A stretch of 64,000 nt of DNA from Thermoproteota archaeon (GTDB lineage Archaea > Thermoproteota > Thermoprotei_A > Sulfolobales > Ignisphaeraceae). Position 1 is the first letter of the stretch, and each line of letters begins with the position of its first letter. Made by a program: the position numbers and the translations under genes. The notes below the pieces were generated by a model that did not search any database, had not been told where the DNA came from, and was given only the letters and a program-made list of their open reading frames with translations. Of the stretch, positions 11,769 through 44,003 are shown piece after piece. The DNA lies in NCBI GenBank assembly GCA_030550585.1, contig JAUQPB010000003.1, positions 36,333 through 100,332 of the forward strand, in the 5' to 3' direction.

Positions 11769-12002
11769 CAAACCCATCCTAATACATCCCCCAAACAGCT
11801 TCGAAGTCCATGCTTTAAAACAATAAAATAACCACTTTCCATAGAGCTTCATGGGAAAGACCATCAAATTGATATAGCCATTGCAGTTCCACAACCACCA
11901 TTGTATATTCCGTGGAGCAAAGCCCCATTTCAACATAGTTTACATGGCGTTTGTTTTTGATAAAACAATGTTTTAGTTACACCAATAGCTTGGTGCAACA
12001 GG

Positions 12003-12767: not shown

Positions 12768-12806
12768 GATTCTGCCATCCACATTGTATAGCATATGAAT
12801 GCCCTT

Positions 12807-14165: not shown

Positions 14166-14183
14166 TATTTCACACCTATGTGT

Positions 14184-15575: not shown

Positions 15576-15816
15576 GCGACTCTCCTTTCTCAACAGCATA
15601 GACATATGCTGAGAGTCTTAGAACATATAGCGATGCTGAGAGCAGGGTGAAACCTATCAATGCCGATATAAGGGATGTGCCAACATATGCCCTCTCCATG
15701 TATCCAACAGACCATATTAGGAATAGAATGGATAGTATTGCAAGAGCTAGTCCAACGCCTAGATATATAGCAAACTGTAGGTTTTTAATCCTTGGGGATG
15801 TGTAGCCCCTGCTCAC
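15565..15816 (-). CDS. Small two-TM membrane protein
   Basis: 83 aa with two hydrophobic helices; overlaps both neighbours in the operon. Confidence 0.7.
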   Translation of the reverse strand: MSRGYTSPRIKNLQFAIYLGVGLALAILSILFLIWSVGYMERAYVGTSLISALIGFTLLSASLYVLRLSAYVYAVEKGESHEK

Positions 15817-25012: not shown

Positions 25013-25972
25013 TCAGCACTTATTGTGCCACCAATACACATACCATGGCCAAAAACCATTTATATATCCATACCAATTGGGGTCAGGATTGGGTTCAGGC
25101 CCTTCACTATAACCCATTTTCCTTCCGTCATGATACCATGCTTCATATCTATAACCATAGCCGATATCTCTAGTAAATGCATATATTCCCCTCTCCGGAT
25201 ATGAGAATATGCTTTCATAGTAACCGCGTGATTCTACATAATTTCGAAATTCTTGTAAAGAGTTAAATGGTTTTCCAGTAGGACCAAACCCTAGTACTGG
25301 ATCTTCATTTTCACAACCCCATAAACATTCAACCTTACCAGGTATGCAGCAGTCTGTAGGCATGTTTATGACATGGCAAATAGTTATATTCAAAACTCTA
25401 GGGCATGGTATGTTGTATGCTCGGGGTATAATCCCGCAAGAATATACATTATTTCCACTACTACAAGCGCCTAGGGAAGGACATGTAGTAGTACTAGAGG
25501 CACCTATAAGAGCAGCATCTTTTGTTATACATTTGCTATTGCTACTATTAAATATAGATTTTATTATAGCATTTCTAACACCCGTAATCTTAGCATATAT
25601 TATCTTGATCTTTGCCTCTCTAGGTAATGAACAGAACTCTTTAATCTTAGGTATATTGTTATGTGTTAGCCCTTTGGCATATAGTTCCTTTATATTCATT
25701 CTACACAACCTGTTCTCGAACACATCAACTATTTTAGCTACTGATGAGTCTATATTATCTTCCACAAGCTTACATGTAACAACATTATCACATTCGTATG
25801 CTATCTCTGTAGACTCTCCCTGTATTACAATTACTGTAAGAGATGCCAAATATATTGTCACTGTTACAGCAATTACTAATGCCATATACAAACTATAGTC
25901 TGATACTCTTGGCCCATTATCAGCGTTTTCAGCAGAATTTTTCACGTGAATTGAAGACATATGTCTAGGCAT
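25013..25972 (-). CDS. Orphan exported Cys-rich protein with aromatic C-terminal domain
   Basis: TM/signal at ~aa 27-50, many Cys, ends EGPEPNPDPNWYGYINGFWPWYVYWWHNKC. Confidence 0.75.
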   Translation of the reverse strand: MPRHMSSIHVKNSAENADNGPRVSDYSLYMALVIAVTVTIYLASLTVIVIQGESTEIAYECDNVVTCKLVEDNIDSSVAKIVDVFENRLCRMNIKELYAKGLTHNNIPKIKEFCSLPREAKIKIIYAKITGVRNAIIKSIFNSSNSKCITKDAALIGASSTTTCPSLGACSSGNNVYSCGIIPRAYNIPCPRVLNITICHVINMPTDCCIPGKVECLWGCENEDPVLGFGPTGKPFNSLQEFRNYVESRGYYESIFSYPERGIYAFTRDIGYGYRYEAWYHDGRKMGYSEGPEPNPDPNWYGYINGFWPWYVYWWHNKC

Positions 25973-27578: not shown

Positions 27579-28547
27579 TTGGTGCATATCGTGACAACAA
27601 CTCCATATGGCTATATCCAGCTTCTACCACCTCTCCTAGACGCCGAAGTTGAGGCAGACTTAGATAGAATACACAACTGGAGAAACATAGGACTGGCATC
27701 TGTAGACCCAAATCTGTGGGGATTGAGCAGATTCCAGGGGGCTGAGGGCGTTATAGGCAAGGCCATAGCCAAAGCTGTTAAAGGCTCTGAGCTCATCTTC
27801 AAATCAAGGTTTTTGCTAGAGGGCATCGACTTCAAACCTTGGGAGGTTCTAGCATACCACGAGATCATCTATGGTTACAAGCCTTGGGAACACACCGAGA
27901 CCCACCCACAACCTGTAAAAACCCTTGGGCTTCCCACCAAGGTCTCCAACCTATACAGAAAGTCGATAATTCTGTACACAGACCATGAGATAAGAAAGAG
28001 CAACACAAAAATCAATTTCTCATATGATATGTGGCTAATGAGAAGTGCAACAGACATGAAATGCTCTAAAGGAGATATAGAGCTCATGATATGGCTCTAC
28101 AGATCCCCAGATCTAAAGCCCCTGCCCAAAGAAGCTGATGCTGTTGTTGAGATACCTATTCTCATAAACGGGAGGATTGCAACAGCAAAGCTAGAGGCAT
28201 ATATAACAGAGATAACTCTGCCTAGTGGAATTGGGGGATGGACATACATAGCATTTGCACTAGAAAACCCTGTTGAGAAAGGTTCGATAGCCCTAGACTT
28301 CACAAGTTTGTTAGAAATCACAAGAGATGTGCTTGCAAAGCACATGCCTAGCGAGTGGAATAAAGAGAAGTTTGATGATCTATACCTGAGATCAATCGAG
28401 GTTGGCACAGAGGTGTTCTTCTCTAATAGAGTAGATGTTGAGTGGAGCTTTAGAGAAATGCACATAGCTGTTCTACCCACGAGGATAAGCTCTGAAAAGG
28501 CTTTGGAAAGTCTCGTAGACCCGTTAACACTATTCAAAATTAGCTAA
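27579..28547 (+). CDS. GH12 endo-1,4-beta-glucanase, no signal peptide
   Basis: NLWG, YHEIIYGYKPW, SYDMWL, ELMIWLY (nucleophile Glu), IEVGTE (acid/base Glu). Confidence 0.85.
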   Translation: MVHIVTTTPYGYIQLLPPLLDAEVEADLDRIHNWRNIGLASVDPNLWGLSRFQGAEGVIGKAIAKAVKGSELIFKSRFLLEGIDFKPWEVLAYHEIIYGYKPWEHTETHPQPVKTLGLPTKVSNLYRKSIILYTDHEIRKSNTKINFSYDMWLMRSATDMKCSKGDIELMIWLYRSPDLKPLPKEADAVVEIPILINGRIATAKLEAYITEITLPSGIGGWTYIAFALENPVEKGSIALDFTSLLEITRDVLAKHMPSEWNKEKFDDLYLRSIEVGTEVFFSNRVDVEWSFREMHIAVLPTRISSEKALESLVDPLTLFKIS

Positions 28548-28794
28548 ACAGCGTGAAAACCTACTGCAATCACCTTTTTATCTGTACAATGCTACTCTAC
28601 CAATGCTCCCCCATATTCAAACTTTGTGATGTGCAGCATCAACTAGTATGATGGCAAAGTATGTGCACTTCTCTAAATTAGTGCCTAAAGCTAGAGGCTC
28701 TGGGTCATAAATAGAATATCCATGACGTTTGCAGACGCCCTATATTTCTAATCAAATCATGTGTTGGTTATATGAATTAGAAAAAGGTTTTGTG

Positions 28795-31311
28795 TTATTT
28801 CCTACCCATTATGACAAGCACGTGGTGCTCTTTTCCATCGTTGAACGCTGGCACAACATTTCCTTCTATGGGCTTGCCATCGACTATTATCTGTTTGACT
28901 CCTCTATTCACATGCTCCTCGTTTTTGACTTCTATGATGTATGTGGCATTTCTGAATTTTCTAATCATTTTGAATCCTGGCCAGTCTCTCGGTATGGTTG
29001 GGTCTATGATCAGCCCATCGTATGTTGGCCTTACGCCTAGTATCCACTGGGTTATGGCCACGAACATCCACGAGGCTGTGCCGGTTAGCCACGAGTTTCT
29101 CGCCATTCCAAATCTTGGCGATGCCGGCCCTGCTATCGTCTGTGCGTATACATATGGCTCTGTTCTATGTATGTGGGCTATAGCTTCTCTCACAGATGGG
29201 TTAAGCCTCAAGTAGTAGTCTAGAGCCTGCTCGGCTCTGCCAGCAATGGCCTCTGCTATGATTATCCATGTGTTGGGGTGGCAGAAGATGCTTGCATTTT
29301 CTTTGTGTCCTGGGGGATAGCTCGATATTTCTCCTAGGTGCACATAGTATTTTGTGTATGGTGGCCAGTGTAGGATTATTCCATGTTCTGTTGCCAGATA
29401 CTTTTTAACTGAGTCTAGGGCTTTCAGAGCCATTCCATTGTCGAGGCCTATCCCAGCCATTATGCACATGCCCTGGGGCTCAATGTATATCCTGCCCTCC
29501 TCATTCTCCTTAGACCCTATCTTCCGGCCAAAGGCATCATATGCTCTTAGGAACCACTCACCATCCCACCCATACTTCTTCACCCTCTCAGCCATGTCCT
29601 CAACAAGCTTTCTAAAGTACTCTGCATCCTCTTTGCGGCCTATGCGCTCAGCTATTTCAGCAAGCTCCTTCACAGCCCACACAAATTGACAGGCTATGAA
29701 AACAGACTCTGCTGTCTTGCCATCTGTTCTCTCTGGAGCTGTTTGGAAAGATTCGTCTGGGTTCATAGACATGACGTTGAGGTTTAGACAGTCATTCCAG
29801 TCTGCATGGCCTATCAGCGGCAGTCCGTGTGGACCTCTGTTCTTGTCTATGTATATAACAGCCTTTTTGAGATGCTCATACAAAGGCTCTTCAGTGCCGG
29901 GGGTGTTGTCGTAGGGTGCTTTTTCGAAGAGTATTGAGAAGTCTCCTGTCTCTTTTATGTAGGCGACCGTTGATGCGACTAGCCACAGCGGGTCGTCGTT
30001 GAATCCCCCGCCTATCTCTCTATTCCCTCTCTTTGTGAGGGGTTGGAACTGGTGGTAGGTGCTTCCATCTGGGAGCTGTATAGATGCTAGGTCGATTATC
30101 CTCTCCCTTATTCTCTGCCATAGAGGCGCTAGATGCAAAGCCCCGAGAATATCCTGGTTAGAGTCTCTAAAGCCGACACCTCTAGCGATACCGGATTCGT
30201 ATCCAGAGGCGCTTCTAGCTAGATGGAATGTCATGAATATCTGGTACTGGTTCCAGACATTGACGATTCTGTTTATATGTTCGTTGGGGGTCTCCACATG
30301 TAGATACGATAGCATTTCGTCCCAGAACCTCCTAAGCTCCTCGAATGCCTGTTTAACCCTCTCGGGTTTGAGCCACTCTTTAAGTAGTTGCTTAACCCTT
30401 GTCTTGTTGATGATGTTAGGAGCTATGAATTTCTCCTCCCACGGGTTCTCTGCATAACCCAGTATGAATACTATCTCCTTCTCCTCTCCAGGCTTAAGCT
30501 TGAGTCTAATGTGGTGAGACCCTATTGGGTGGCCGCCATATAAGATGCTGTTCCTCGACACCCCCTCCTCAACTACTATTGGGTTTTCATAGCCTCTGTA
30601 AGGCCCTATGAAAATCTCTTTATCTGTGTCGAACCCTACTATAGGTTCTGAGGATGCGAAGAATGCAAAGTGGTTTCTTCTCTCTCTATAGCCAGTCTTA
30701 TGGTATATGACATTGTCCTCCACCTCAACCTCTGCAATGTTTAGATTCCTCTGAAAGTTTGTCATATCGTCTACGGCGTCCCAGAAGCAGAACTCTACAT
30801 ATGTGAACAGCTGGATATCTGCTTCCCTATCCCTGAGATTCTTTATCTTAAACCACCAGACCTCAAAAGTCTGCTTCAGAGGTACGAAGTATGTTACCTC
30901 TGTCTCTATACCCTTGTACCTAGACCTTATCTTCGTGTAGCCAAGTCCATGTCTACACTCGTAAAAATCAAGAGGCTTTTTCACAGGTTGCCAAGTGGCT
31001 GACCAGTACTCCCCCGTTTCAGCATCTCTCACATATATGTACCTGCCAGGCTGGTCCATTGGGACGCTATGATATCTATACCTCGTTATACGTCTGTACC
31101 TAGGATCTTTATAGAAGCTATAGCCACCACCAGTATTCGATACAATTCCAAAGTACTCTTCTTGTCCAATATAGTTGATCCATGGCGTGGGGGTATCAGG
31201 CCTAGTTATAACATATTCACGTGCAGCGTCATCGAAATAGCCGTAGGGAGAGCCCTTAGAGCGAGAGCTCATACACAGATACCTCAGATGCCTTTTAGCT
31301 ATATGCTCCAA
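28795..31311 (-). CDS. GH94 cellobiose phosphorylase
   Basis: [65 protein letters not shown]. The true start may be the second Met. Confidence 0.92.
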
Positions 31312-31466: not shown

Positions 31467-32240
31467 CTAGGTGTCGTAGATTGATTTGCAGAAAGCTGTT
31501 GTGCCTGCCCCGCTTTCGGCTGGCGTTTTCATTCTCTCTGCAATGAGGTGAAGATTGTTTGTGTAGAGAATTTCTCTGAGTATCTCTTTGCCTTTCATGG
31601 CTTCTGTTCTTAGGCATTGCAGAGGTGTTTGCAGTGCTATATTCAGGACCGCTTCGTCTAGGAAAGGGGCTACAGCATCTATACCTATACACTTAGCTAA
31701 TTCGATTTCTGGATATCTTCCATTTGCAAGTCTTTTAATGTATTCTTCAAGTTCATTACCTGTCAGTGTTAGGAGGAAGGTATAGCCAGCGAATATCTCG
31801 TCCCCACCACTTCCAGTGTAAATGCATTTGCATCCATCTTCAAAGGCTTTTCTGAGCACAGAGTAAAACACCAAATCATTTCTAATCTCTATGCACCCTC
31901 CATCGCCATGGGAGTCTATCCTCTCTTTGCCAATGCATCTAACAATGTCTTGGACTGTCTCCCCCTCTTTCTGCTTATCTATAAAGACATATCTAGTCTC
32001 TATATTGAAGATCTTTGCCAAGTGCTCCACATATATGAGGTCTCTTGGCAAGCCGTTGCTGTATATTGCTATGTAGCCCCTTGGCTTAACACCAGCTGAA
32101 AGAGCTGCTATAAGCACTACTGTTGTGTCTATCCCGCCGCTTAGAGCAATGCAATCACACTTCCTCTTCTCGATTACATCCCTAATCACATTGAATAGAA
32201 TTTTGCTGTATATTGTACAAGGCATTGAGAATCTCATCAA
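31467..32240 (-). CDS. Asparagine-synthase-like C-terminal (PP-loop) domain protein lacking a glutaminase domain
   Basis: ALSGGIDT, TGSGGDEIFAGY, APFLD, GKEILRE. Confidence 0.82.
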   Translation of the reverse strand: MMRFSMPCTIYSKILFNVIRDVIEKRKCDCIALSGGIDTTVVLIAALSAGVKPRGYIAIYSNGLPRDLIYVEHLAKIFNIETRYVFIDKQKEGETVQDIVRCIGKERIDSHGDGGCIEIRNDLVFYSVLRKAFEDGCKCIYTGSGGDEIFAGYTFLLTLTGNELEEYIKRLANGRYPEIELAKCIGIDAVAPFLDEAVLNIALQTPLQCLRTEAMKGKEILREILYTNNLHLIAERMKTPAESGAGTTAFCKSIYDT

Positions 32241-32860
32241 ATCAGCCTCAATATCTTGTATCCGTCGTAGTTCTCTACATCAACAATCTTATAGCTCAAA
32301 CTAGCTTTGTGCAGAGGACCCGACAAAACGATTGTGTGGTACTCCCCCTTTTCACCTAGAGGGTCAACACCAATACTCTTAGCATTCTCGGCAAATGCAT
32401 AAACATTGTCACGATCCAATACCACGCCAAGCCACTTGCCCAAACCATTTACACACCCTATAACCATAGGCTTTAGCCCATCTTCGATCTCCTTATAAAG
32501 AAGATCCTCTGGATCCATACCCCAAAGAGGCTCAACAAGAGCGGCACCAACCTCTTTAGCGATATTTTCCATATACCTGAGATGATCCTCAATATAAACA
32601 TCGCCGGCTATAAGAGTATCTACACCCAAACTCCTAAGAAACCCCACAGTCTCAACAAACTCCCTGCCCTTACCAAGCTTAACAACAGCCACCGGTATCC
32701 CCATCAAAAGAATTGTCTCAACAGTCTTCCCCAAATTAACTAGGTGGGGACTTGGCCTAGGAAAGTCGTATACCAGTACAAGCCCTATGTCAACTTGGAT
32801 TCCAGAACGATATATTGCATAGTAAGAGTCTTTACCACCCGAAAGAAAGGCTACATGCAA
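32237..32860 (-). CDS. Diphthine--ammonia ligase (Dph6/MJ0570)-like PP-loop ATPase
   Basis: FLSGGKDS, AGDVYIEDH, EPLW, DPLGEKGEYHT. Confidence 0.85.
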   Translation of the reverse strand: MHVAFLSGGKDSYYAIYRSGIQVDIGLVLVYDFPRPSPHLVNLGKTVETILLMGIPVAVVKLGKGREFVETVGFLRSLGVDTLIAGDVYIEDHLRYMENIAKEVGAALVEPLWGMDPEDLLYKEIEDGLKPMVIGCVNGLGKWLGVVLDRDNVYAFAENAKSIGVDPLGEKGEYHTIVLSGPLHKASLSYKIVDVENYDGYKILRLI

Positions 32861-32862
32861 TG

Positions 32863-33516
32863 CTAGTCACCTGATTTCTGGAAATGCTTCAATTTGAACT
32901 CCATGGTAACATTCTTAAGGACAGTCTTATGACATGTTGTTCTCGGGGGTAGCAATAGATTCTTTGATACAATTCTGTATATGTCATCTACTACAAGCTT
33001 TGGAGGTGCCAAACAAATATCGTGAGCTAGGCAGGTTTCAGGGTCAACGGGGGTCTTAGTTAAAGAGTTAAGTATTTTGTGAAACCCTAATTCTTTAATG
33101 GCGAGATAGAAGTCTATTCTGTCAATCCTTGCCTCAACCACTTCATAACCCATTTTAAAAATCAGCAAACCATCTCCTCTCTTAGCAGAAAACTCAGCTT
33201 CGCTAACTATTTTCTTCAAAAGTCTTTGATCCTTGTACCACCTAGAAGCTGTATACATCCAACCACCAACATCAGAAATGTCAGAGCTGTAGTCAGCTAA
33301 TACCACGGGTATGTGTCTTGCCCCAAGAATTTTCAGGGCACTGACTCTATGATGCCCATCGATAACTATATACCTTTTTTCATCAACTATAACAGGCTTT
33401 CTAAGGATCCCTGCCATCGAGAGTTCTCCCAAAATGTTTAGAAGCCTCTGTTTCTCCACATCTTCATGGGAAATAAGCATGTCTATGGGAACCATTTCGA
33501 TCCTTAGGCGACTCAA
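32863..33516 (-). CDS. ParB/Srx-fold protein, SerK/SbnI-like free amino-acid kinase
   Basis: ISHED, KPVIVD, VIDGHHRVSAL, and C-terminal LPPRTTCH resembling the SerK PKTTRH motif. Confidence 0.72.
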   Translation of the reverse strand: MSRLRIEMVPIDMLISHEDVEKQRLLNILGELSMAGILRKPVIVDEKRYIVIDGHHRVSALKILGARHIPVVLADYSSDISDVGGWMYTASRWYKDQRLLKKIVSEAEFSAKRGDGLLIFKMGYEVVEARIDRIDFYLAIKELGFHKILNSLTKTPVDPETCLAHDICLAPPKLVVDDIYRIVSKNLLLPPRTTCHKTVLKNVTMEFKLKHFQKSGD

Positions 33517-33548: not shown

Positions 33549-34508
33549 CTACCTAGCCAGATATATAGTTATCGATAATACATTTATAATCAATATATAT
33601 GTAGCCACATTTAAAATGGCAAGCCCAAGAGCCCTCTTAATATCTCCCCCTGTTGGAAGAGGAAAACCCTCTCCTATTACATATGATCCTATCTTCTCGA
33701 GCCTCACAGATAGACAGCCAGAGGCTGCTGCCATTGGATGACCTGCATTAACACTTTCAGTAGCTCTTCTATATCTTTTGTATGTATCCCAGCTTCTTCT
33801 TATAGACCCTTTTACGATTGGGGATAGCAGTATTATGAGCAGGGCCTCTAGTCTTGCGGGAACGAAGTTTATGATTGTGTCTGCTTTTGCTGAGAACCAG
33901 CCCACATCTCTAAATTCCTCTTCTTTGTATCCGAGTGCAGAGTCGAGGGTGTTGGCTATTCTCTGTGTGAGTGCTCCTATAGGTCCGAGTATGAGGTAGT
34001 ATAGGAGTGGGGATATAAAGCCATCGACAAGACTCTCAAAAAGCGATTCTATTGCTGCTGATGCTATGTGTCCTTCGCCAAGGTTTTTGACCTCTCTTCT
34101 AACAATGTTTGAGACTTCTGTTCTTGCACATGTTAGATCTCCTTTGGCTAGACATATGTAGACGTTTTTGACGTGGTTGTATAGCAGTTTGAACGATGTG
34201 GAGACCTTGAGTATGTATGCTGAGAGAATGATCCAGGCAATTCTGCTAAACATATCCGCTATGTATAGCGCCAAAGAGTATAGAGCTACGTGGCTTGCAA
34301 CAACAGCAAACCATATAGCAATGCCCCAAAGCCTTGTTCTGGGAAGTGATCTATGTAACTTTAAAGCCATTGCATATGATGTGTGGACAGGGTGTATATA
34401 GTATAGAGCTCCCTCGTGCCTCGGATATGCAAGGTCTAGGGCCAGGGCTAGAAACAGTATGACTACAAATTCTGGGTAGCTCTGGGGAAGGAGAAAGTCT
34501 AGAGCCAT
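33549..34508 (-). CDS. cbiB: Adenosylcobinamide-phosphate synthase CbiB
   Basis: HPVH, AAIESLFESLVDGFISPLLY, ANTLDSALGY, SVNAGHPMAA. Start at ATG 34508 overlaps the cobS stop. Confidence 0.9.
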   Translation of the reverse strand: MALDFLLPQSYPEFVVILFLALALDLAYPRHEGALYYIHPVHTSYAMALKLHRSLPRTRLWGIAIWFAVVASHVALYSLALYIADMFSRIAWIILSAYILKVSTSFKLLYNHVKNVYICLAKGDLTCARTEVSNIVRREVKNLGEGHIASAAIESLFESLVDGFISPLLYYLILGPIGALTQRIANTLDSALGYKEEEFRDVGWFSAKADTIINFVPARLEALLIILLSPIVKGSIRRSWDTYKRYRRATESVNAGHPMAAASGCLSVRLEKIGSYVIGEGFPLPTGGDIKRALGLAILNVATYILIINVLSITIYLAR

Positions 34509-35287
34509 AGACTGGCACCCAGAACAAGAGCTGTTAGTATAGCTGCATAGCTCAGCTCGTTTGCAAATCCAAGGACATCTCCATTGGCATAGCCAAGGGT
34601 TTTCATACATAAAACAATTGTTGTATATGCAGAGATTGTTAGTGCTGCTAGCACTAGAATAGAGGTTGTAGCTCCTATGTAAATAGACAAGAAGGTTGCA
34701 TATGTTATCGAAAGCGATGCAAGTAAAGCGCCAACTATATCAACAGTCCTCAACCCTTTTCTAAAGAGTCTTCCCAACCCATCTGGAGGCTCCCTGCAAG
34801 CATATGCCACAACAGCCATTGTTATGGGAGACCACGTCTCGGCAACTAGAACAATTCTTGTCGCCTTCCATAGATCTGAAAGGTGAATGGCTTGTAGCGT
34901 TATTGAGTAGAGCCATAGTGCAAACAATGCAAATACTGCTATGGCGTAGGATCCTCTGAATCTATCCTTAACAACTTTGCTGGCATCAGCACCAAATCTG
35001 TGGGCTAGTACAGCCTCGGAGAAGTCTATGAATCCATCTGCGTGGATAAACCCTTGTATAATGTAGTGCATTGCCACTACGGAAAACGCTTGGATATACG
35101 GTGCATCAATGTGGAGCAAGGCTGAGAGTATTATTGGTGTAGCAGTGAAAACACCTCTGACAAAGCCTATAATGGGTAACATATAGAGGGATTCGAATGA
35201 GATCTCTGCCCCCAGATATCTTCGTGGAATTGGCAGCGAGGTTAGAAAAGCTAGTAGGGATAGAAAGTCTCTTAGCTTTTTAGCCAA
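34499..35287 (-). CDS. cobS: Cobalamin (5'-phosphate) synthase CobS
   Basis: AFLTSLP, GFIHADGFIDFSEA, DGLG, GYANGDVLG. Confidence 0.9.
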   Translation of the reverse strand: MAKKLRDFLSLLAFLTSLPIPRRYLGAEISFESLYMLPIIGFVRGVFTATPIILSALLHIDAPYIQAFSVVAMHYIIQGFIHADGFIDFSEAVLAHRFGADASKVVKDRFRGSYAIAVFALFALWLYSITLQAIHLSDLWKATRIVLVAETWSPITMAVVAYACREPPDGLGRLFRKGLRTVDIVGALLASLSITYATFLSIYIGATTSILVLAALTISAYTTIVLCMKTLGYANGDVLGFANELSYAAILTALVLGASLWL

Positions 35288-36338
35288 CGCCCATCACAAT
35301 CTTTAGTGCTTCGACAAGCTCATTGTTTTCTCTAGGGCTTCTAATAGCTATTCTAATGTAGTTTGAGTCCAATCCCCTGAAGCTACTACAGTCCCTCAGA
35401 GCCAGGCCCATCTCCCTAAGCTTCTCAACTATTTGTCTACCACCATCTATCTTGATTAGGAGAAAATTTGTGACGCTTTCAAAAACCTTTGCACCAAGTG
35501 ATTCAAGTATTTTTCTAACCCTCTCCCTCTCACTATCTATATACTCTCTAGATCTTTGAATAAAGCTCTTCAGCTCCTGCTCATACACAGAAATGTTTTT
35601 ACCCAAGCACTCAGCCAAGCTATTCACATTCCATGGCTGTCTCAAAGCCTCTACCCTCTCCAATAAATCTATGTCATTTGTGTATAGAAAGCCTAGTCTC
35701 AGGCCTGGAAGCGAAAGCCATTTCGTTAGCGATCTCACAACAACAATGTTTTTTGGTATTTCACCCCCAACTTCAATTGGGCATCTACTGCAAAGCTCTA
35801 TATAGGCCTCATCGACAAGGCTCCTAGCACTACAGTTGGATAGGTAGCTAAATAGTCTTTCTCTATCAATGTATAGCCCAAGGGGGTTACTAGGATTTGT
35901 TATCACTATCAACCCATCTCTATCGCTACAAGGCTTCTGCAAGTCTGAGAGGTCTATGTGGAACCCATCTGATGTTCTTCTATAGAATATAGGTCTATAT
36001 TCTAGGCCGAGAGCCTTTGAAAGATCTTCGTATTCGCCGTAGGAAGGCTCTAAAACGTATACCCTCCTCGCTTTTGAAGCGATTACAGCAAGGTTTATAG
36101 CCTCGCCAGCTCCTGCAGTTGGAACTATATACTCTTCTTTGCAACGATAGAACCTTGCTAGAGACCTCTTCAAATCTCTGTATGTGTAGTCGGGGTACTT
36201 CTCCAAAACCCTTTGGCTAAAGCATGTGGCAAGAATCTCTAAAACTGTTTTTGGTGGGCCAAGCGGATTTAGATTGGAGCTGAAGTCTATTCTAGCTTCT
36301 CTGTCCCCTCCATGGATCCGCATTGGCTTTTCGCCCAC
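35280..36338 (-). CDS. cobD: L-threonine-O-3-phosphate decarboxylase CobD (PLP)
   Basis: HGG, DFSSNLNPLG, NPSNP, VDEAY, RSLTKWLSLPGLRLG, LRDCSSF. Confidence 0.88.
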   Translation of the reverse strand: MGEKPMRIHGGDREARIDFSSNLNPLGPPKTVLEILATCFSQRVLEKYPDYTYRDLKRSLARFYRCKEEYIVPTAGAGEAINLAVIASKARRVYVLEPSYGEYEDLSKALGLEYRPIFYRRTSDGFHIDLSDLQKPCSDRDGLIVITNPSNPLGLYIDRERLFSYLSNCSARSLVDEAYIELCSRCPIEVGGEIPKNIVVVRSLTKWLSLPGLRLGFLYTNDIDLLERVEALRQPWNVNSLAECLGKNISVYEQELKSFIQRSREYIDSERERVRKILESLGAKVFESVTNFLLIKIDGGRQIVEKLREMGLALRDCSSFRGLDSNYIRIAIRSPRENNELVEALKIVMGVG

Positions 36339-36832
36339 AGCAAATCCTCTACAGTGTCTATATCTCTAAGCTCTTTCGATTCCTCAAAATATATGTTTTC
36401 CCAAGTGCCTTTAGATCTCCTGAAGAGGGATATTCCAGACTCTCTACACACACCATCTTTGCAGATAGCCAGCGTCACCACATCAGCTTTGGAGTTGGTT
36501 ACTTTGTCCAGAAAGCTTTTGACTGCATCAACTGTTAGGAAGGGTATGTCAGCTGGCAGAACCAGTACCGGGAACCTGGCTTTCTCTAGTATGTAAGCCA
36601 AGTCAGTGACATAGTCTATCCCTGGACACTCAACAACATCGACCTTTTTCAGAGATTTGATTAAGGGTACATCCTCGCTTCTGGCACACACAACAATCCT
36701 TCCATCGATGCCAAGGCTTAGGGCAACCTCTAACGAGACCTCGATTAGCTTTCTATTGCAAATCTCAAGAAAATATTTTTTAACACCTCCAAGCCTCGAG
36801 CCCTTGCCGCCAGCCATGATTATAACATCCAT
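36287..36832 (-). CDS. cobY: Adenosylcobinamide-phosphate guanylyltransferase CobY
   Basis: IMAGGKGSRLG, ADIPFL, DIDTVEDL; located in the cob operon. Confidence 0.82.
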   Translation of the reverse strand: MDVIIMAGGKGSRLGGVKKYFLEICNRKLIEVSLEVALSLGIDGRIVVCARSEDVPLIKSLKKVDVVECPGIDYVTDLAYILEKARFPVLVLPADIPFLTVDAVKSFLDKVTNSKADVVTLAICKDGVCRESGISLFRRSKGTWENIYFEESKELRDIDTVEDLLWAKSQCGSMEGTEKLE

Positions 36833-36858: not shown

Positions 36859-37947
36859 TCAATGGCTATTCAGATACTTGTCATATACCCTGCTAAGAAC
36901 ACTTCCAACGACTGCAGCAACAATGTCGTCTGTCATAGGTGGAAGATTTTCCAGCTCCTCGAAAACCCCTTCCTCTTTCAGTCTTTCTATCCAGTAGTAT
37001 GCTAAAAGCCCTTTGAACCCATTTACATACTCTGCAATTGCTTTGCCTATAAGCTCGTCAGCTATGATCTTGGGCGTGTCAACTCTATACTCCTCCTCGC
37101 TAATTCCCGGAAATAGGTTTAGTGCCATCAGCATCTCAGCCAACCTAGCACCCCTCACAACTATGCAGATATTCGGATCCTTGAAAACATCCTCAAACTC
37201 TCTTCTAAGAATCTTCTCCACCTCTCCACTACTGAGCATGGGTATTGGAGCCTTGTTGTAGGCCTTTACCGCAATCTTCAATATATCATCGATGGATCTG
37301 AGCCCAACACTATTCACAAAATACTCTATGCAGTTCGTACCCACTACAAATTTTGACAAAGCCTTTAGAGTGGCTACAGCAGCTGTGAAACCAACATCAG
37401 TTGCTATACCACCAAACCTTTCGCCACCCTGAGGAGCTGCAACCATTGTTGCATCAGATGCTGTTCCTATTGAAGGGGCTGTTAAACACATTGGGCCTGC
37501 CAAACCCATTGCCAACCCCTTTACCTCAGACACCAACCTGTAGAGATCGAGTAAACCAACCTCATCAAGAGGTTTATTGACAATAACGGCAACATTTATG
37601 GTTCCAACAGCCATCGCATTGCTCGGAATGTTAGCATCTATGCACGAAGGCTTATCAACTCCAAAGGTTACATAGACCTCTGCTATAACATCTCTAAAAA
37701 TGTGTGTTGCATGCCCATACTCCCTTACATCAACTGCTGTAAGAAATATTGTAGATTTTTCATAGTCTATGCCAACAGATTTTGCAGTGTCTTTGCAGTA
37801 CCCATCTAGATCAACATATTCGAAATCTTTTGGAACCCTTCTAAACACTATGTACCTAACATCCTTGTATATCTTTGGGCATCCAGCAGTCGACAAAACC
37901 TTGTATTCCTTCTCCAAATCGATGACCAGAGTGTCGCTGTTTCTCAT
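36859..37947 (-). CDS. cbiS: Bifunctional CbiZ amidohydrolase / CobZ alpha-ribazole phosphatase fusion (CbiS-type)
   Basis: N-half FLTAV, GTINV, GTASDA (CbiZ); C-half DPNI, ADELIGKAIAEYVNG, LPPMTDD (CobZ). Confidence 0.8.
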   Translation of the reverse strand: MRNSDTLVIDLEKEYKVLSTAGCPKIYKDVRYIVFRRVPKDFEYVDLDGYCKDTAKSVGIDYEKSTIFLTAVDVREYGHATHIFRDVIAEVYVTFGVDKPSCIDANIPSNAMAVGTINVAVIVNKPLDEVGLLDLYRLVSEVKGLAMGLAGPMCLTAPSIGTASDATMVAAPQGGERFGGIATDVGFTAAVATLKALSKFVVGTNCIEYFVNSVGLRSIDDILKIAVKAYNKAPIPMLSSGEVEKILRREFEDVFKDPNICIVVRGARLAEMLMALNLFPGISEEEYRVDTPKIIADELIGKAIAEYVNGFKGLLAYYWIERLKEEGVFEELENLPPMTDDIVAAVVGSVLSRVYDKYLNSH

Positions 37948-37964: not shown

Positions 37965-39074
37965 CTATACCACCTTCACAATCCTCTCATACTCTCTATA
38001 CACAGCATGCTTAAGCTCATTAACATCAACACCTTTTAAAATGGCTAGAAGCGATGTACCTCCAGCCCCCACACCCTCTTTAACAAACCCGTCTTCATAT
38101 GCTCTAAGCCCATTGAATGGAGCGTCGCTAAAGTCTAGCTCGACATAGGCAAAGGTTATGTTAGGCACCACCATCTTTATGAACCTAGTTATCTCCGCCC
38201 CCCTGTCGCTGTATATCCATTTTGTGGTGGCTAAAACGAGTCTTTGCTCATCGAATCTAGGATCTATGGCTTTCATCAAGGCGAGTGCTGCGAGCATTTG
38301 GGTTCCACCAGCAAGAATAACAGTTGCTCTTGATTTCAGTGCTCCAAGGGCTAGACCAGCAATAGCTATGTGGACAGGGTCTCCAATAACATCATTTATT
38401 TTGAAGGGGTCTTCAGATTGTCCGAGCCTCTTCAGAGCCTCTTCAACAACAGCTTTTTTAATGTTTAGCGGATTTTCTTTTGCAGAGCTACTGATAATGT
38501 TATAGGCGTTGTATCCAAGTCCTTGTAGAATGGATAGAGCTGTTGTTGTTCCACCTGGAATGCTCTCCCCAATTAGCACGACACTGGCTATAGAGCCCAT
38601 TGCTCTGCCAACTAGAGTTGCCTCATCGAAAATTTTTCTCGATGTTCCATGGGACAACGCATCCTCTCTATCTATTCTACCCCCAACACAGCTACTTGAG
38701 AGGCTTATCAAAGGTATTCTAGGCTTTATGTAAGAGCCTGCATCAATAACCATGAAAGGTGTTTGAGAAAGCTGTAAGGCTGTTCTCGTTATTATAGCAG
38801 GTGTTGGTATGCCCGTTGGGGTTGTCGGTATGATGTCTATAGATACAGGCTTCCCAAAATAGAGATACTCCACATCGAGAGCAGGCGTAAACAGCGTTGC
38901 GATACTCATAGAGCCTGCTAGTGATATATTTGGAATTGTAGAGGTCATAGTGGATCCTATAACGTATAGCGCAATTGAAGAGCTTTGGAAAGCAGAGATG
39001 CTGTCTAGAGACCCTTGCAGAACCCTAATCCCCTTAACCATATGCGTCACACAAAAGGGTCTGGCTATAAACAT
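37965..39074 (-). CDS. cobT: Archaeal-type nicotinate-nucleotide:base phosphoribosyltransferase CobT
   Basis: TPALDVE, PTPAIIT, GESIPGGTTTA, LAGGTQM, YEDGFVKEGVGAGG. Confidence 0.9.
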   Translation of the reverse strand: MFIARPFCVTHMVKGIRVLQGSLDSISAFQSSSIALYVIGSTMTSTIPNISLAGSMSIATLFTPALDVEYLYFGKPVSIDIIPTTPTGIPTPAIITRTALQLSQTPFMVIDAGSYIKPRIPLISLSSSCVGGRIDREDALSHGTSRKIFDEATLVGRAMGSIASVVLIGESIPGGTTTALSILQGLGYNAYNIISSSAKENPLNIKKAVVEEALKRLGQSEDPFKINDVIGDPVHIAIAGLALGALKSRATVILAGGTQMLAALALMKAIDPRFDEQRLVLATTKWIYSDRGAEITRFIKMVVPNITFAYVELDFSDAPFNGLRAYEDGFVKEGVGAGGTSLLAILKGVDVNELKHAVYREYERIVKVV

Positions 39075-39097: not shown

Positions 39098-39892
39098 TCA
39101 TATCTGAACCCCCTTTTCGAGGGGCTCCAATGGAATGACAATCTTCCTGCCATCAACATTTGCAATAGCTATTTTAACACCATAGACCTTCTCAAGAATA
39201 TCCTTCTTTAGAACCTCTTCAGGAGCTCCACAGGCAACCACCGACCCGCCATTCATCACTATTATCTTGTCTGCGTATAGAGAGGCCAGATAAATGTCGT
39301 GTATAGCTACAATAGCCACAATGTTATCTCTCTTTACAACAGATTTGATATAGTCTAGAACCTCTAGCCTATACCTCAAATCTAAGAAAGCTGAGGGCTC
39401 GTCTAAAAGCATAACCTTGGGCTCTTGGATAAGAGCCCTCGCAATTAAGACTCTCTGCAACTCGCCACTACTAAGCTGATCTAGTCTCCTATCGAGGAAC
39501 TGCTTTATGTTTAGCTGCCTTGAAACCTTTTCAACTATCTCAAGATCTTTTGTTGATATGGAGAAGCTTAGCATGTTTTGGTGGGGGTATCTAGCTGTTA
39601 GGAGAAACTCTAGAACTGTTGAGGGTATGGATCTAGATATGTGTGGGTCTACATAGGAGAGAAGCCTGCTTATATCTTTGGGCGACAAACTCGAAACAGC
39701 TTTTCCATCGATATAAACAACACCTTTTCTAGGCTTTACAACAGATGCTATTGTCTTTAGAAGAGTTGTTTTACCCGCTCCGTTAGGACCTATAACAAAT
39801 GCTAGTTCGCCAGAGGATATGGACAAGGTTACTCTATCCAGAGCCTTCACAGAGTTGTACCAAACTTCAACATCTTCAACAACTATCTTCAT
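39098..39892 (-). CDS. btuD: Corrinoid ABC transporter ATPase (BtuD-like)
   Basis: GPNGAGKT, LSSGELQRV, LLDEP; FepC/BtuD type, in the cob operon. Confidence 0.85.
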   Translation of the reverse strand: MKIVVEDVEVWYNSVKALDRVTLSISSGELAFVIGPNGAGKTTLLKTIASVVKPRKGVVYIDGKAVSSLSPKDISRLLSYVDPHISRSIPSTVLEFLLTARYPHQNMLSFSISTKDLEIVEKVSRQLNIKQFLDRRLDQLSSGELQRVLIARALIQEPKVMLLDEPSAFLDLRYRLEVLDYIKSVVKRDNIVAIVAIHDIYLASLYADKIIVMNGGSVVACGAPEEVLKKDILEKVYGVKIAIANVDGRKIVIPLEPLEKGVQI

Positions 39893-40932
39893 TGTCTCAT
39901 CCTCTTGGCTATTAGATAGGCGAGAAAAGGTGCTCCTATAATCGATGTTACAACGCCTAGGGGGAGCTCCCCAACAGCACCACTATACATAGAAACCAAT
40001 CTGACAACAATATCTGCAAATGTTGTTAGAATCCCCCCGACAAGAGCTGTTATTGGTATGGAGAATCTGTGGTCAGAGCCCACAAAGAACCTTGCTATGT
40101 GGGGTGCTGCAAGACCAACAAAACCTACGATGCCTATGAAGGCTATTGTAATGGCTGTTAAGAGAGATGCTATACCTGTTGATATTAGGGATATGAGTTT
40201 TGGGTTAAAGCCAAGCTGCTTCGCATAGTCATCGCCGTATAGATATGCGTTCAATGGTTTGAATAGAGCTATCGAGAATATTAGCAATGCTATGGTCGGA
40301 TAAGCTATGAACGCTATATCTCTGTACAACACAGTGTTTGTAGAGCCCATCAAGAAGTACACAATTGGTGTTCCAATAACCCTTTGAACTATGTACAGAA
40401 GAACATGTGAAACACCTGAGAATAGAGATGCCACAGCTATGCCTGCTAGAACCAGCGCCAGGCTACCCCCTCCAGCCAGTTTTGCAAGCATCATTGTCAT
40501 GAAATAGCCTAGTAGAGCCCCTATAAACGCCACCACCACAAGGTTATATCTGTAAACAGCTGTTGATGGAGATAATATAATTGTTAGCGAGATAGCTGTG
40601 AGTGCAGTTGATGAAAGGCCAAATATGTATGGGTCTGCCAAGGGGTTTCTAGTGGTGGTCTGCATAAGAATGCCTGCTATGGATAGGGCAACACCGCAGA
40701 AGAAAGAGGCTACAGTTCTAGAAACTCTTAGCATAGCCACTAAACGAACGCTGCTATCGCTAGTTGCCATGCCAAAGGGGCTTAGAAAAACTGTTTTGAA
40801 AATCTCCTTGGGATCCAGCATCGAAGGGCCTATAGATAGAGATGCGATTGTTATGGCCATGGATAGAACTATGAGTGTAAAAAGCGAAATTAAAAAATGT
40901 TTTACCTTTCTTTTGTAGAGCTCTAAAGCCAT
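39889..40932 (-). CDS. btuC: Corrinoid ABC transporter permease (BtuC/FecCD)
   Basis: RNPLADPYIFG, GIVGFVGLAAPHIAR, ELPLGVVTSIIGAP. Confidence 0.87.
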   Translation of the reverse strand: MALELYKRKVKHFLISLFTLIVLSMAITIASLSIGPSMLDPKEIFKTVFLSPFGMATSDSSVRLVAMLRVSRTVASFFCGVALSIAGILMQTTTRNPLADPYIFGLSSTALTAISLTIILSPSTAVYRYNLVVVAFIGALLGYFMTMMLAKLAGGGSLALVLAGIAVASLFSGVSHVLLYIVQRVIGTPIVYFLMGSTNTVLYRDIAFIAYPTIALLIFSIALFKPLNAYLYGDDYAKQLGFNPKLISLISTGIASLLTAITIAFIGIVGFVGLAAPHIARFFVGSDHRFSIPITALVGGILTTFADIVVRLVSMYSGAVGELPLGVVTSIIGAPFLAYLIAKRMRQ

Positions 40933-40935
40933 GTT

Positions 40936-42204
40936 CTATGCAACCTCTATAGGTGGTGTTGAAACAGCTTCCCCTATTTCTAGCACCTCAAGATTTGCCA
41001 CAGCGATGTTAACTACATCAGCTCTCTGTACCTCTCCGAAAATCTCTGGGTGGATAACCTTGGAGAGTATATCCAAAGCCTCAACAATCCTTGGGCCGGG
41101 TCTGCTAACAACATCGTCTGCTTCTCCCATCAACAGATAAACCCTTCCATTCTTCCAAGCGGTTGTATTAACAAGAGGTGTTGCAACAAGCTCTTGATAG
41201 ACAGACTTTGGATCCACATCGTGTACTGTGACAATTATTATCTCAGGATCCTTAGACAAGATAAATTCGTAGCTTAGCGTAGGCCATTTGCTATAGCCAG
41301 ACGCTATATTGTTTCCACCAGCTGTTGTTATAACCCAATTGATAAATGTGTCTCCACCAGTGCTGTACAAGCCCCATGATGGTGGCCCTACAAGCCACAA
41401 AACCCTTGGCTTGGATGCATTGACCAACTTGCTGCTTATCTCATCTATCTTTCTCTGCATAGACTCTACAATCTCTTTAGCCTTATCCTCAACACCGAAG
41501 ATCTGGCCCAGCGTCATGAGATCTGCATAGATATCATACTGGTTTCTAGCTGCATCACATATGAGGAAGAATGTCTTTATCCCAGCCTCTTCAAGCTTTG
41601 CTCTAAACCCTGTCTCCTGAGGTGATACATCCCTGCACATAAAGACCACATCGGGCTTTAAACTAATTATCTTCTCCACATCCAGTGTCCACGGACCACC
41701 AACAACAGTTATCTTACCTTGTTTAACAAGGTCTAGAACCTCTGGTGGATAATTGGAGTAGGAGTCCACTCCAACAACTCTATCCCCAACTCCTATAGCA
41801 AATAGATCCTCTGTTATGCTAGGAATTGTGGATACAACTCTTTTTGGAGGTTCATTAAATGTTATTTCTCTTCCCAATGCATCAACAATTGTTCTTGGCC
41901 ATGTTACTTGTACTGTTTCAACAATTGTTGTTGGGATAGATGTTGAGACAGTTTTAATCGTAATGATTGTTGTTGGTAGTGTAGCTGAGGTGGTAAACGT
42001 TAGAGTTGTTAACGAAGCAGATGCAATTGTTGTATATAGTGTTGTGTACATCGTTGTAGTTTGTACTATAGAAGTGTAGATAGGAGATGTTGAGGTTATT
42101 GTGATGGTTGTTGTTGGCTTTGGAGCTATGATGTTTGGTGTATACCCTATTGCAATACCTATTATCAATGCTATTGCAATCAAGGCTATGTGTTTTGCCT
42201 GCAT
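40936..42204 (-). CDS. btuF: Corrinoid-binding protein BtuF with Thr-rich stalk
   Basis: N-terminal TM, ~70-aa Thr-rich linker, DALGR, PKRVVS, SRPGPRIVEAL. Confidence 0.85.
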   Translation of the reverse strand: MQAKHIALIAIALIIGIAIGYTPNIIAPKPTTTITITSTSPIYTSIVQTTTMYTTLYTTIASASLTTLTFTTSATLPTTIITIKTVSTSIPTTIVETVQVTWPRTIVDALGREITFNEPPKRVVSTIPSITEDLFAIGVGDRVVGVDSYSNYPPEVLDLVKQGKITVVGGPWTLDVEKIISLKPDVVFMCRDVSPQETGFRAKLEEAGIKTFFLICDAARNQYDIYADLMTLGQIFGVEDKAKEIVESMQRKIDEISSKLVNASKPRVLWLVGPPSWGLYSTGGDTFINWVITTAGGNNIASGYSKWPTLSYEFILSKDPEIIIVTVHDVDPKSVYQELVATPLVNTTAWKNGRVYLLMGEADDVVSRPGPRIVEALDILSKVIHPEIFGEVQRADVVNIAVANLEVLEIGEAVSTPPIEVA

Positions 42205-42344: not shown

Positions 42345-43145
42345 TTGGTGTTACAACTGAGAATTGTTAGCCTGTCTCCAGCTGTTACCGAAACCCTTGT
42401 CCTCTTGGGACTTGAAGATGAGATTGTTGGTATAACACCATGGTGCAGAATGTACTTGAATAATCCAGCAGAAAAAGAGATTGCAGGAACATATCTTCAC
42501 GTGCCCATCAAAAAGCTCAAGGATCTCAGCCCTGATATAGTCTTTCTTCAGTCGAGGGTGCACGACAAGATCTTCAGCGATGTCAGGTCTGCTGGGTTTA
42601 ATGCATATTTAATGCCTTTGCCAACCAATGTCAATGCCATAATATCGCATATAGTCCTTGATGTGGGTGCAATCACTGGTAGATATTATGAGTCTAGGAG
42701 GTTAGCTGAAGAGCTTCTAGACAAGGTTATGGATATATATAGGAGGTCTAGAGGTGGGAAGAGGCTAAGGATATATGTTGAGTATCTGTGGCCCGACAAA
42801 ACATATTCGACAAGCGGTGCTCTTACATACATAGACGATGGTATTTGGATAGCTGGTGGAGAGAACATCTTTCATAGTGTGCCAAAGGAATTCTTTAATC
42901 CTAGAGATGAAGATATTGTAGCAGGGGATCCAGATTTGATACTTGTGAATATAGAGCCGCCATGGGAATCCCTGACAGTGGATAAGTATAAAGAGATTAG
43001 AGAGCCTCTATCAGAGTTGAAGGCGTTCAAGTATAACAGGATTCTGTTGGTTAAAGAGACTAGAGATGTTAATCTAGCGCACTTTGGGCCTTCGTTCATA
43101 TCGACAGTAGACTGGTTGTCGAAGACATTAAGGCAATACCTATAG
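42345..43145 (+). CDS. Second BtuF-like helical-backbone receptor without signal peptide
   Basis: Begins directly with RIVSLSPAVTETL; AGGENIF, HFGPS. Confidence 0.8.
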   Translation: MVLQLRIVSLSPAVTETLVLLGLEDEIVGITPWCRMYLNNPAEKEIAGTYLHVPIKKLKDLSPDIVFLQSRVHDKIFSDVRSAGFNAYLMPLPTNVNAIISHIVLDVGAITGRYYESRRLAEELLDKVMDIYRRSRGGKRLRIYVEYLWPDKTYSTSGALTYIDDGIWIAGGENIFHSVPKEFFNPRDEDIVAGDPDLILVNIEPPWESLTVDKYKEIREPLSELKAFKYNRILLVKETRDVNLAHFGPSFISTVDWLSKTLRQYL

Positions 43146-43157
43146 CAGAAACAGAAT

Positions 43158-44003
43158 GTGCATAGCAGGTGCGCGAAACTGGGTATAGACATGGATTCGA
43201 CAAGTAGAGATAAAGGCGTTAGGACAAGAGTCTATCACATAACATTCTATGACCACGACAACTCTGCGTACATCCAATTCCTCGGATGTAATCTCAGCTG
43301 TCTGGGTTGCATAAGAAAGAGGTATCTGTGGGACCACCACATCGAGAACATAGACCAGGCAATAGATGCGAAAACAGCGATCAGAACCCTAACGCTTGGC
43401 GAACTAGAAGATATTTTGAGAAAAGCTGTGGATGTGCTTGGCCTCAGAAGAGCTGTTCTTGGAGGGGGAGAGCCAACTTCAGATCCAAGCTTCTGCCAAA
43501 TCATCGAGATCCTTGGTGAACTGGGCCTCAGCATTTCAATTCTTACAAACGGCTATGAACTAGATAGGGTATTAGGCTGCATACCTCCAAAGACTTTGAT
43601 AGAGCTCAGCATCAAAAGCATAGACAGCACAAAATACAGTTTATATACAGGTGGCGGGGATCTAAATAAGGTTTTGAAAAACTTTGAAATGTTGCTCAAC
43701 ACACAACTAAATGTTGTGGTAGAGACAATACTCATTCCACAATTCAACGATGTTGACGATATCGAGAAACTGGCTATGTACATAGCTGGCAAAGACCCTG
43801 GAATACCCCTCATAATAGATGAATATATACCTGTGCCCCAGACGCCCTGGGGTAGGCCAAGCAGAGAAAGTCTGTTGGATGCATATAGAAGAGCTAGGAA
43901 GTATCTACACATAGTTATAGTCAGATCATCGTATCCAGAGTTTCACACATCCAAGAAGTTGGGAAACACCTTGATACTCTACCCTTCTAGTCAAATCCGC
44001 TAG
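43158..44003 (+). CDS. Radical SAM protein (PFL-activase-like)
   Basis: GCNLSCLGC, LGGGEPT, LTNG, ETILIPQFND. Confidence 0.85.
   Translation: MHSRCAKLGIDMDSTSRDKGVRTRVYHITFYDHDNSAYIQFLGCNLSCLGCIRKRYLWDHHIENIDQAIDAKTAIRTLTLGELEDILRKAVDVLGLRRAVLGGGEPTSDPSFCQIIEILGELGLSISILTNGYELDRVLGCIPPKTLIELSIKSIDSTKYSLYTGGGDLNKVLKNFEMLLNTQLNVVVETILIPQFNDVDDIEKLAMYIAGKDPGIPLIIDEYIPVPQTPWGRPSRESLLDAYRRARKYLHIVIVRSSYPEFHTSKKLGNTLILYPSSQIR

Follow-up and report, generated by a model that had tools for sequence, protein, structure and literature searches.

A B12-type DUF71 gene and a glutaminase-less AsnB-like gene at the end of an archaeal btu/cob operon: a candidate module for corrinoid amidation

Introduction

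Why does an archaeal operon for the import of corrinoids and the assembly of cobamides end in two genes that bear the family names of diphthine-ammonia ligase and asparagine synthase? The question arises from a 64,000-nucleotide stretch of contig JAUQPB010000003.1 of a hot-spring Thermoproteota archaeon (Ignisphaeraceae), hereafter the window, which has a G+C content of ~42% and in which 12 co-directional genes run on the minus strand from 42204 to 31467, with spacings of 32 bases or less or with overlapping open reading frames (ORFs). The last two genes encode a Dph6-like PP-loop protein of the DUF71 family and a protein related to the synthetase half of AsnB. A preliminary description of the locus took them for stand-alone amide ligases dependent on adenosine triphosphate (ATP), and suggested that they re-amidate heat-hydrolysed or incomplete corrinoids during salvage, a step that it placed outside the standard pathway. 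Here we examine to which families the two genes belong, whether their pairing and their link to B12 genes are conserved, and which reaction they may catalyse.

Results

The two genes close a 12-gene operon

The 12-gene btu/cob operon is real, and its order is btuFCD, cobT, cbiS, cobY, cobD, cobS, cbiB, a gene for a SerK-like kinase, the DUF71 gene and the AsnB-like gene (Table 1). Both of the terminal genes lie where the preliminary description had placed them, with Pfam matches to the families expected, and the tight coupling that it reported can be read directly in the sequence. The TAG stop of the SerK-like gene (32865-32863) is followed after 2 bases by the TTG start of the DUF71 gene at 32860, and the TGA stop of the DUF71 gene (32239-32237) overlaps the TTG start of the AsnB-like gene (32240) by 4 bases. 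An in-frame ATG at 32237, at which the 256-residue database relatives begin, is an alternative start for the AsnB-like gene and would reduce the overlap to 1 base. Beyond the AsnB-like gene the operon ends in a 155-base A+T-rich spacer, followed by an unrelated phosphorylase gene of glycoside hydrolase family 94 (GH94).

The absence of cbiA and of cbiP/cobQ, also claimed at the outset, was upheld for the 64-kb window by a Pfam scan of 52 of its 55 ORFs of at least 150 amino acids, none of which has a CbiA or CobQ/CbiP domain; the three ORFs outside the scan (13795-14535, 25344-25898 and 60041-60589) are each the shadow of a longer ORF on the opposite strand. No cobalamin riboswitch was found in the window by Rfam, its matches being two tRNAs only. 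Sigma-70 promoter-like sites number 25 compared with 25.9 in shuffled sequences, and terminator-like sites 6 compared with 7.7; both are signals of bacterial type, and the host is an archaeon.

A DUF71 gene of the B12 type

The class of the DUF71 gene was assigned from the cut-offs of hidden Markov models together with a signature motif. Its product scores 277.3 bits against the NCBIfam model NF052347 (TTX_0299), above the curated cut-off of 250, and 87.4 bits against the archaeal Dph6 model TIGR03679, under the equivalog cut-off of 197.3. The PP-loop SGGKDS is kept and is placed after the first strand, and a GEKGEYHT motif aligns to GEGGEFET of PH1257 and PF0828, both Dph6-type proteins of solved structure, with His in place of Glu. 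All 120 of the DUF71 relatives listed carry this His-type motif, as GExGE[FY]HT in 119 and as GKRGEYHT in one. An AlphaFold2 model of the protein has a predicted local distance difference test (pLDDT) value of 96, and its best Foldseek matches are PH1257 and PF0828, with template modelling scores over the query (TMq) of ~0.8 and 28-30% identity. A database protein that is 100% identical to the product carries the source name "MAG: ATPase [Ignisphaera sp.]" (MAG, metagenome-assembled genome). Fused or longer forms of DUF71 were sought and none was seen among 2484 candidates, which the search tool itself rates as weak evidence. Because the Dph6 score falls under its cut-off and the signature Glu has become His, the gene is best classed as a Dph6 paralog of the DUF71-B12/TTX_0299 type and not as an ortholog of Dph6, in agreement with the preliminary description.

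The DUF71-B12 subgroup was tied to B12 salvage in 2012 through the comparative genomics of de Crecy-Lagard et al. (PMC3541065). Dph6 is distinguished there by an EGGE/DxE motif that contains Glu188 (PF0828 numbering), and the DUF71-B12 subgroup by ENGEF/YH; 75 of 102 DUF71-B12 genes adjoin B12 transporter genes and 18 adjoin cbiB. The window gene clusters in the same manner, standing in one operon with btuFCD and cbiB, and the clustering recurs at two of the loci described below (L003 and L004). The subgroup is present across many bacterial phyla, with P. furiosus and M. mazei named among the archaea that have it, and AsnB-DUF71 fusion proteins are reported from a few archaea (PMC3541065); the table of a 2016 review enters the family as "function unknown, B12 salvage" (PMC5041015). 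In the literature searched, with subscription-only papers outside its coverage, we found no assay of DUF71-B12 function, no paper describing the AsnB-like partner, and none linking an AsnB-like gene to cbiB beyond the 2012 study. The DUF71 half of the pair is a new member of this published, still uncharacterised family.

The AsnB-like gene encodes a synthetase domain with no glutaminase

No glutaminase domain was found in the AsnB-like protein, either by Pfam or by alignment to AsnB, in which the family profile aligns only to residues 210-461 of the 553 of the E. coli protein (E 6.5e-19), within the synthetase half. The protein scores under the cut-offs of both AsnB models, TIGR01536 (52.6 vs 267.1 bits) and NF006949 (42.4 vs 499). 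The AlphaFold2 model has a pLDDT of 92 and a predicted template modelling score of 0.91, and Foldseek places AsnB (1ct9) first with a TMq of 0.77, with beta-lactam synthetase at 0.77 and carbapenam synthetase at 0.70; the iron-sulfur PP-loop sulfur transferases TtuA and LarE are weaker fold matches, with template modelling (TM) scores of only ~0.4. The PP-loop SGGIDT, which follows the first strand of the model, the GSGGDE motif, and Lys217, which aligns with the Lys of AsnB EKHILRE, are conserved over 28 aligned relatives, and the family retains the ATP-site residues as SGGxD(S/T), GxGxDE and a C-terminal Lys. By sequence and predicted structure both genes encode ATP pyrophosphatases of the PP-loop superfamily, and the ATP-binding motifs of both are intact.

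The D-E pair of the AsnB acidic motif GEGSDE is kept, and one position of this motif departs from AsnB. Glu348 of AsnB, which we take to control acyl-adenylate formation, is replaced in the subfamily of the window by Ser in 54 of 60 members, by Thr in 2 and by Asp in 4, and among 149 more distant representatives the aligned residue is Asp in 104. Eight cysteines (C7, C27, C29, C101, C136, C138, C183 and C208) recur in 25 or more of the 28 aligned members and could be a zinc site, an iron-sulfur site or disulfides. Judged by secondary structure, C27/C29 and C136/C138 border the N-termini of two strands and stand apart from the PP-loop, a placement that suggests a structural site for these four.

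Matches to the AsnB-like protein among 1.84 billion representatives number 643 at E<=1e-3, 126 at <=1e-10 and 8 at <=1e-30. The named relatives belong to Ignisphaera, Fervidicoccus, Desulfurococcaceae and Sulfolobales, and the gene is one of a narrow Thermoproteota subfamily. Distant relatives occur in Nitrososphaerales, and a language-model search places the protein near clusters of short AsnB-like proteins that come from phages and from archaea of other phyla.

The pair and its B12 linkage recur in other archaea

A scan of genome contigs listed at least 50 loci, nine of which (L001-L009) encode full-length short AsnB-like relatives with 26-50% identity; these nine take in no Ignisphaera, Fervidicoccus or Desulfurococcaceae genome. 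The scan patterns also matched ordinary AsnB genes, and L010-L050, mostly bacterial matches of the AsnB family, provide 41 controls. A DUF71 gene with the His-type motif directly adjoins the AsnB-like gene at five of the nine listed loci (L001, L003, L004, L006 and L008), at one of them with the gene order reversed, and neither a DUF71 nor a cob gene lies in the flanks of any of the 41 controls. The neighbouring DUF71 genes at L001 and L003 pass the TTX_0299 cut-off of 250, those at L006 (235 bits) and L004 (138 bits) fall under it, and the one at L008 has Dph6 as its top model, yet scores under the cut-off of that model.

A linkage to cob genes conserved in other archaea is likewise borne out, with B12 context at four of the nine listed loci (L003, L004, L007 and L009). 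At L003 the pair is convergent on a full btuFCD-cobT-cbiS-cobY-cobD-cobS-cbiB operon, at L004 it lies inside a btu/cob operon like that of L003, and at L007 the AsnB-like gene has a divergent btuF-type gene nearby. L009 (6259-10948, a Nitrososphaera MAG) holds a longer glutaminase-less AsnB-like gene directly after genes for a B12-binding-domain protein, MeaB and methylmalonyl-CoA mutase, an arrangement that ties the wider AsnB-like family to B12 independently.

Two further observations bear on the pairing. For 13 of 60 AsnB-like database matches the longest contig is exactly as long as that of one of the 120 listed DUF71 matches, an indirect indication of common contigs, four of which are shorter than 4 kb. 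Prediction of a complex between the DUF71 and AsnB-like proteins gave a score of 0.33, compared with 0.00 for the best of three controls, which lends weak support to an interaction; of 157 solved complexes 116 attain the mark used, as do 2 of 215 mismatched pairs, and at scores of 0.60 or less it is reached by only 18 of the 157 solved complexes together with both of the passing mismatches. Contacts agree between the prediction runs to 97% or more, and the pLDDT of the partner is at least 82.

The pairing of the two genes and their B12 linkage are real and conserved. For the DUF71 half the link to B12 was already in print; what is new is the AsnB-like partner, and with it the two-gene module.

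Operon layout and neighbouring genes

Table 1. Genes of the btu/cob operon, in order of transcription, with the profile matches that support their names.
Gene product	Position	Strand	Evidence and remarks
BtuF	40936-42204	-	PF01497; first operon gene; nearest NCBIfam BtuF model under cut-off
BtuC	39889-40932	-	PF01032; nearest NCBIfam BtuC model under cut-off
BtuD	39098-39892	-	PF00005; nearest NCBIfam corrinoid ABC transporter ATPase model under cut-off
Archaeal-type CobT	37965-39074	-	TIGR00303, 324.9 bits (cut-off 240)
CbiS-like fusion of CbiZ amidohydrolase and CobZ phosphatase	36859-37947	-	PF01955 CbiZ, E 1.6e-36; NF038002 bifunc_CbiS, 210 bits, under cut-off 250
CobY-like nucleotidyltransferase	36287-36832	-	PF12804, E 1.9e-18; NF045495, 55 bits, under cut-off
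CobD-like L-threonine-O-3-phosphate decarboxylase	35280-36338	-	TIGR01140, E 6.5e-72, 242 bits, under cut-off 290.55
CobS, cobamide-5'-phosphate synthase	34499-35287	-	PF02654, E 5.8e-29; TIGR00317, 85 bits, under cut-off 110
CbiB, adenosylcobinamide-phosphate synthase	33549-34610	-	PF03186, E 1.3e-75; NF002281, 336.7 bits (cut-off 273)
ParB-fold SerK/SbnI-like small-molecule kinase	32863-33516	-	NF053625 SerK, E 1.2e-14, 54 bits, far under cut-off 380
DUF71-B12 type PP-loop ATP pyrophosphatase, 207 amino acids	32237-32860	-	PF01902 Diphthami_syn_2, E 4.7e-30; NF052347, 277.3 bits
AsnB-type synthetase-domain-only PP-loop protein, 256-257 amino acids	31467-32240	-	PF00733 Asn_synthase, E 5.4e-15, 56 bits; last operon gene

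By their family matches BtuF, BtuC and BtuD (39098-42204) are predicted to form an ATP-binding cassette (ABC) importer of the corrinoid type. Taken at their longest, the cbiB and cobD ORFs reach back 112 and 52 bases, respectively, into the genes upstream of them, and the true starts of both are probably internal; for cbiB, for example, an internal start is suggested because the Pfam match begins only at residue 52.

The SerK-like protein encoded between cbiB and the DUF71 gene matches the free serine kinase of PDB entry 5x0b (E 6.8e-9) over its N-terminal 84 residues only, keeping the HE and DGHHR motifs, and its C-terminal half has diverged; its structural neighbours include ParB_N+SerK_C clusters (TM 0.77). 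It is a candidate for an L-threonine kinase (EC 2.7.1.177) that would feed CobD. The L-threonine kinase step is a pathway gap in haloarchaea (PMC8305020), and the SerK of T. kodakarensis does not accept threonine (PMC5120207). The same neighbourhood at L004 (2123-3142 and 4800-5849) holds a PfkB kinase gene and an apgM-like gene instead of a SerK-like gene, the apgM-like gene being related to a 'proposed homoserine kinase' family.

Divergent from btuF are genes for a BtuF-like binding protein (42345-43145, plus strand; PF01497), whose N-terminus has no obvious hydrophobic signal or anchor, and for a small radical S-adenosylmethionine protein (43158-44003, plus strand). Just downstream of the operon end, 27579-31311 holds a GH12 glycoside hydrolase gene (plus strand) and the GH94 phosphorylase gene (minus strand), which are unrelated to B12. 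Elsewhere in the window, an ORF of 1572 amino acids with no Pfam match (1763-6481, plus strand) lies between genes for an ABC ATPase and a MacB/FtsX-type permease, and a cluster on both strands at 9286-18909 encodes MoxR-type AAA ATPases and VWA, DUF58 and DUF4129 proteins.

Discussion

Amidation of imported corrinoids

The chemistry of the two families offers a starting point for the role of the pair. Characterised namesakes of both proteins form amides from adenylated carboxylates, and the side chains of corrins are the only abundant carboxylates of the pathway. The side-chain amides of corrinoids hydrolyse to give inactive mono- to hepta-carboxylic acids (PMC9822362). For these reasons we rank first, as a possible and still tentative role, the amidation of imported corrinoids that are incompletely amidated or have been deamidated.

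The two genes would then make up a conserved module that is accessory to corrinoid salvage in archaea, and whose products are synthesised alongside the importer and the enzymes that convert cobinamide to cobamide. Given an imported corrinoid with amides lost or never completed, each enzyme would adenylate a carboxylate side chain, converting ATP to adenosine monophosphate (AMP) and pyrophosphate (PPi), and free ammonia would displace the AMP. The product would be material at the level of cobyric acid, to be finished by CbiB with the other operon enzymes, and the job done by CbiA and CbiP in de novo synthesis would in salvagers be carried out with another fold and another chemistry. In this scheme we infer the substrate, the reaction, ammonia as the donor and the joint action of the two proteins. 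A more specific proposal, that the pair is a two-component, AMP-forming corrinoid amide synthetase that restores or completes the amides of scavenged corrinoids and is a non-homologous replacement for CbiA/CbiP, we regard as rather doubtful.

Several considerations weigh against amidation. No assay, substrate or product for either family was found in the literature searched. The identity of the two proteins as amide ligases, as first described, is supported by their intact ATP-binding motifs, but not by two departures from the namesake ligases at catalytically relevant residues: in DUF71-B12 proteins the Glu188 invariant in Dph6 has given way to His, from which the 2012 authors infer a changed reaction (PMC3541065), and Ser stands at the Glu348 position in most of the AsnB-like subfamily. 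With these two substitutions, neither protein simply duplicates the amide-forming enzyme after which it is named. DUF71-B12 and CbiZ anticorrelate in bacteria (PMC3541065), which fits cleavage or remodelling at least equally well. At two of the listed loci (L002 and L005, 20 kb each) the AsnB-like gene has neither DUF71 nor B12 genes nearby, and the relatives at L004-L009, with 26-33% identity and lengths of ~320-410 amino acids, may not be orthologs. Lastly, the emphasis of the preliminary description on heat-hydrolysed corrinoids is not sustained: with DUF71-B12 in many bacterial phyla (PMC3541065) and distant AsnB-like relatives in Nitrososphaerales, the families extend beyond hot environments, so repair of heat damage has no specific support.

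Alternative roles

The proposal made by the 2012 authors for DUF71-B12 was not amidation but CbiZ-like cleavage or the salvage of pseudo-B12 (PMC3541065). On this hypothesis DUF71-B12, perhaps with the AsnB-like partner, would take cobamides that are complete but not wanted, pseudo-B12 for example, to cobyric acid in an ATP-dependent reaction, a remodelling that is the job of CbiZ in bacteria and that archaeal CbiZ is predicted not to perform (PMC3541065). The bacterial anticorrelation with CbiZ, which is strict, the frequent presence of both genes in archaea, as here with CbiS, and the change of Glu188 to His, suggestive of another reaction, are all consistent with remodelling (PMC3541065). 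It would leave the second adenylating enzyme of the pair without a role. PP-loop enzymes, moreover, are oxygen-adenylating ligases or transferases, and we know of no amidohydrolase among them. A reviewer of the 2012 paper likewise remarked that such a cleavage is the reverse of the typical reaction (PMC3541065), and overall we consider remodelling unlikely.

An amide ligation that uses an amine other than ammonia, by one or both of the enzymes and after adenylation, would join cobyric acid through its f-propionate, or a different corrinoid carboxylate, to aminopropanol(-phosphate) or an alternative linker, and would aid or bypass CbiB. The AsnB-like protein is without a glutaminase domain, and its closest structures after AsnB (TMq 0.70-0.77) are beta-lactam and carbapenam synthetases, enzymes that use a non-ammonia amine; the pair also adjoins cbiB, cobD and a kinase gene, as the 18 published DUF71-B12 genes adjoin cbiB. 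CbiB, however, is present in the operon with a score above its equivalog cut-off and with no sign of a partner requirement, and in Salmonella CbiB alone suffices for linker attachment, which makes this ligation distinctly unlikely.

It is quite improbable that the pair acts away from the corrin ring, in the synthesis or activation of a precursor of the lower ligand or nucleotide loop, or that the AsnB-like enzyme is a sulfur-transferring PP-loop enzyme. We know of no lower-ligand pathway for these archaea, and the eight conserved cysteines together with the appearance of TtuA and LarE among the weaker fold matches could point to sulfur transfer. The TM of ~0.4 to these two enzymes compares poorly with the 0.77 to AsnB, the placement of four of the cysteines away from the PP-loop suggests a structural role in the predicted model, and we know of no thio-corrinoid.

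A pair of housekeeping genes, a diphthamide synthetase and an ammonia-dependent asparagine synthetase co-transcribed with cob genes by chance, is suggested by the Pfam names only and was rejected as highly improbable on cut-offs (87 vs 197 bits for Dph6, with TTX_0299 passed, and both AsnB models failed), motifs (His for the signature Glu of Dph6, Ser at Glu348) and conserved context, the linkage to B12 genes recurring in other lineages.

Significance

Cobamide salvage has had a named gap, DUF71-B12, since 2012, and the finding that a dedicated second adenylating enzyme accompanies it in Thermoproteota provides a concrete two-protein system for study. Were amidation to prove correct, a repair or completion step would be added to B12 salvage, and the annotation of genomes as "salvage-capable" could be refined; a two-component amide synthetase would further represent a cofactor-repair step that is absent from the textbook pathway, and would explain the orphan DUF71-B12 family. 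For these two genes annotation as diphthine-ammonia ligase or asparagine synthase is to be avoided, and the L-threonine kinase still missing from the archaeal pathway has a candidate in their SerK-like neighbour.

Comparison with known systems

The nearest known relatives of the DUF71 gene are the DUF71-B12 subgroup of COG2102 (P. furiosus PF0295; NCBIfam TTX_0299, PAB0415), which it resembles in passing the TTX_0299 model, in its His-type motif, in clustering with btuFCD and cbiB, and in the co-occurrence of CbiZ as in other archaea. It differs in having Lys (GEKGEYH) for the Asn of the published motif ENGEF/YH, and in its pairing with a dedicated AsnB-like gene, which the available portions of PMC3541065 do not describe. 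With Dph6 (PF0828, PH1257; TIGR03679) it shares the fold, the SGGKDS PP-loop and 28-30% identity, and differs in its score under the equivalog cut-off and in having His at the catalytic-site Glu188; the residues of Dph6 that bind elongation factor 2 also differ across the DUF71-B12 subgroup (PMC3541065).

The AsnB-like protein has the same synthetase fold as the C-terminal domain of AsnB and as beta-lactam and carbapenam synthetases, with the PP-loop, the GxGxDE motif and the C-terminal Lys. It is set apart from AsnB by the absence of the N-terminal glutaminase and of the residues after ~461, by Ser at Glu348, and by the eight conserved cysteines.

If amidation holds, the outcome would be that of CbiA/CobB and CbiP/CobQ, the ATP-driven amidation of corrin carboxylates, as a functional analogy only and with no homology. 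CbiA and CbiP are glutamine amidotransferases with another ATPase fold that form adenosine diphosphate and phosphate, whereas the window pair consists of PP-loop proteins with no glutaminase, expected to yield AMP and PPi; in Pfam neither protein matches PF01656 or PF07685, which we take to be the CbiA and GATase_3 domains. CbiZ, the adenosylcobinamide amidohydrolase, has a fold unrelated to that of DUF71. Like DUF71-B12 it is linked to btu genes and cbiB and acts at the same entry point of the pathway, an equivalent role is proposed for bacterial DUF71-B12 in the 2012 study (PMC3541065), and in the operon described here it is present as a CbiZ-CobZ fusion.

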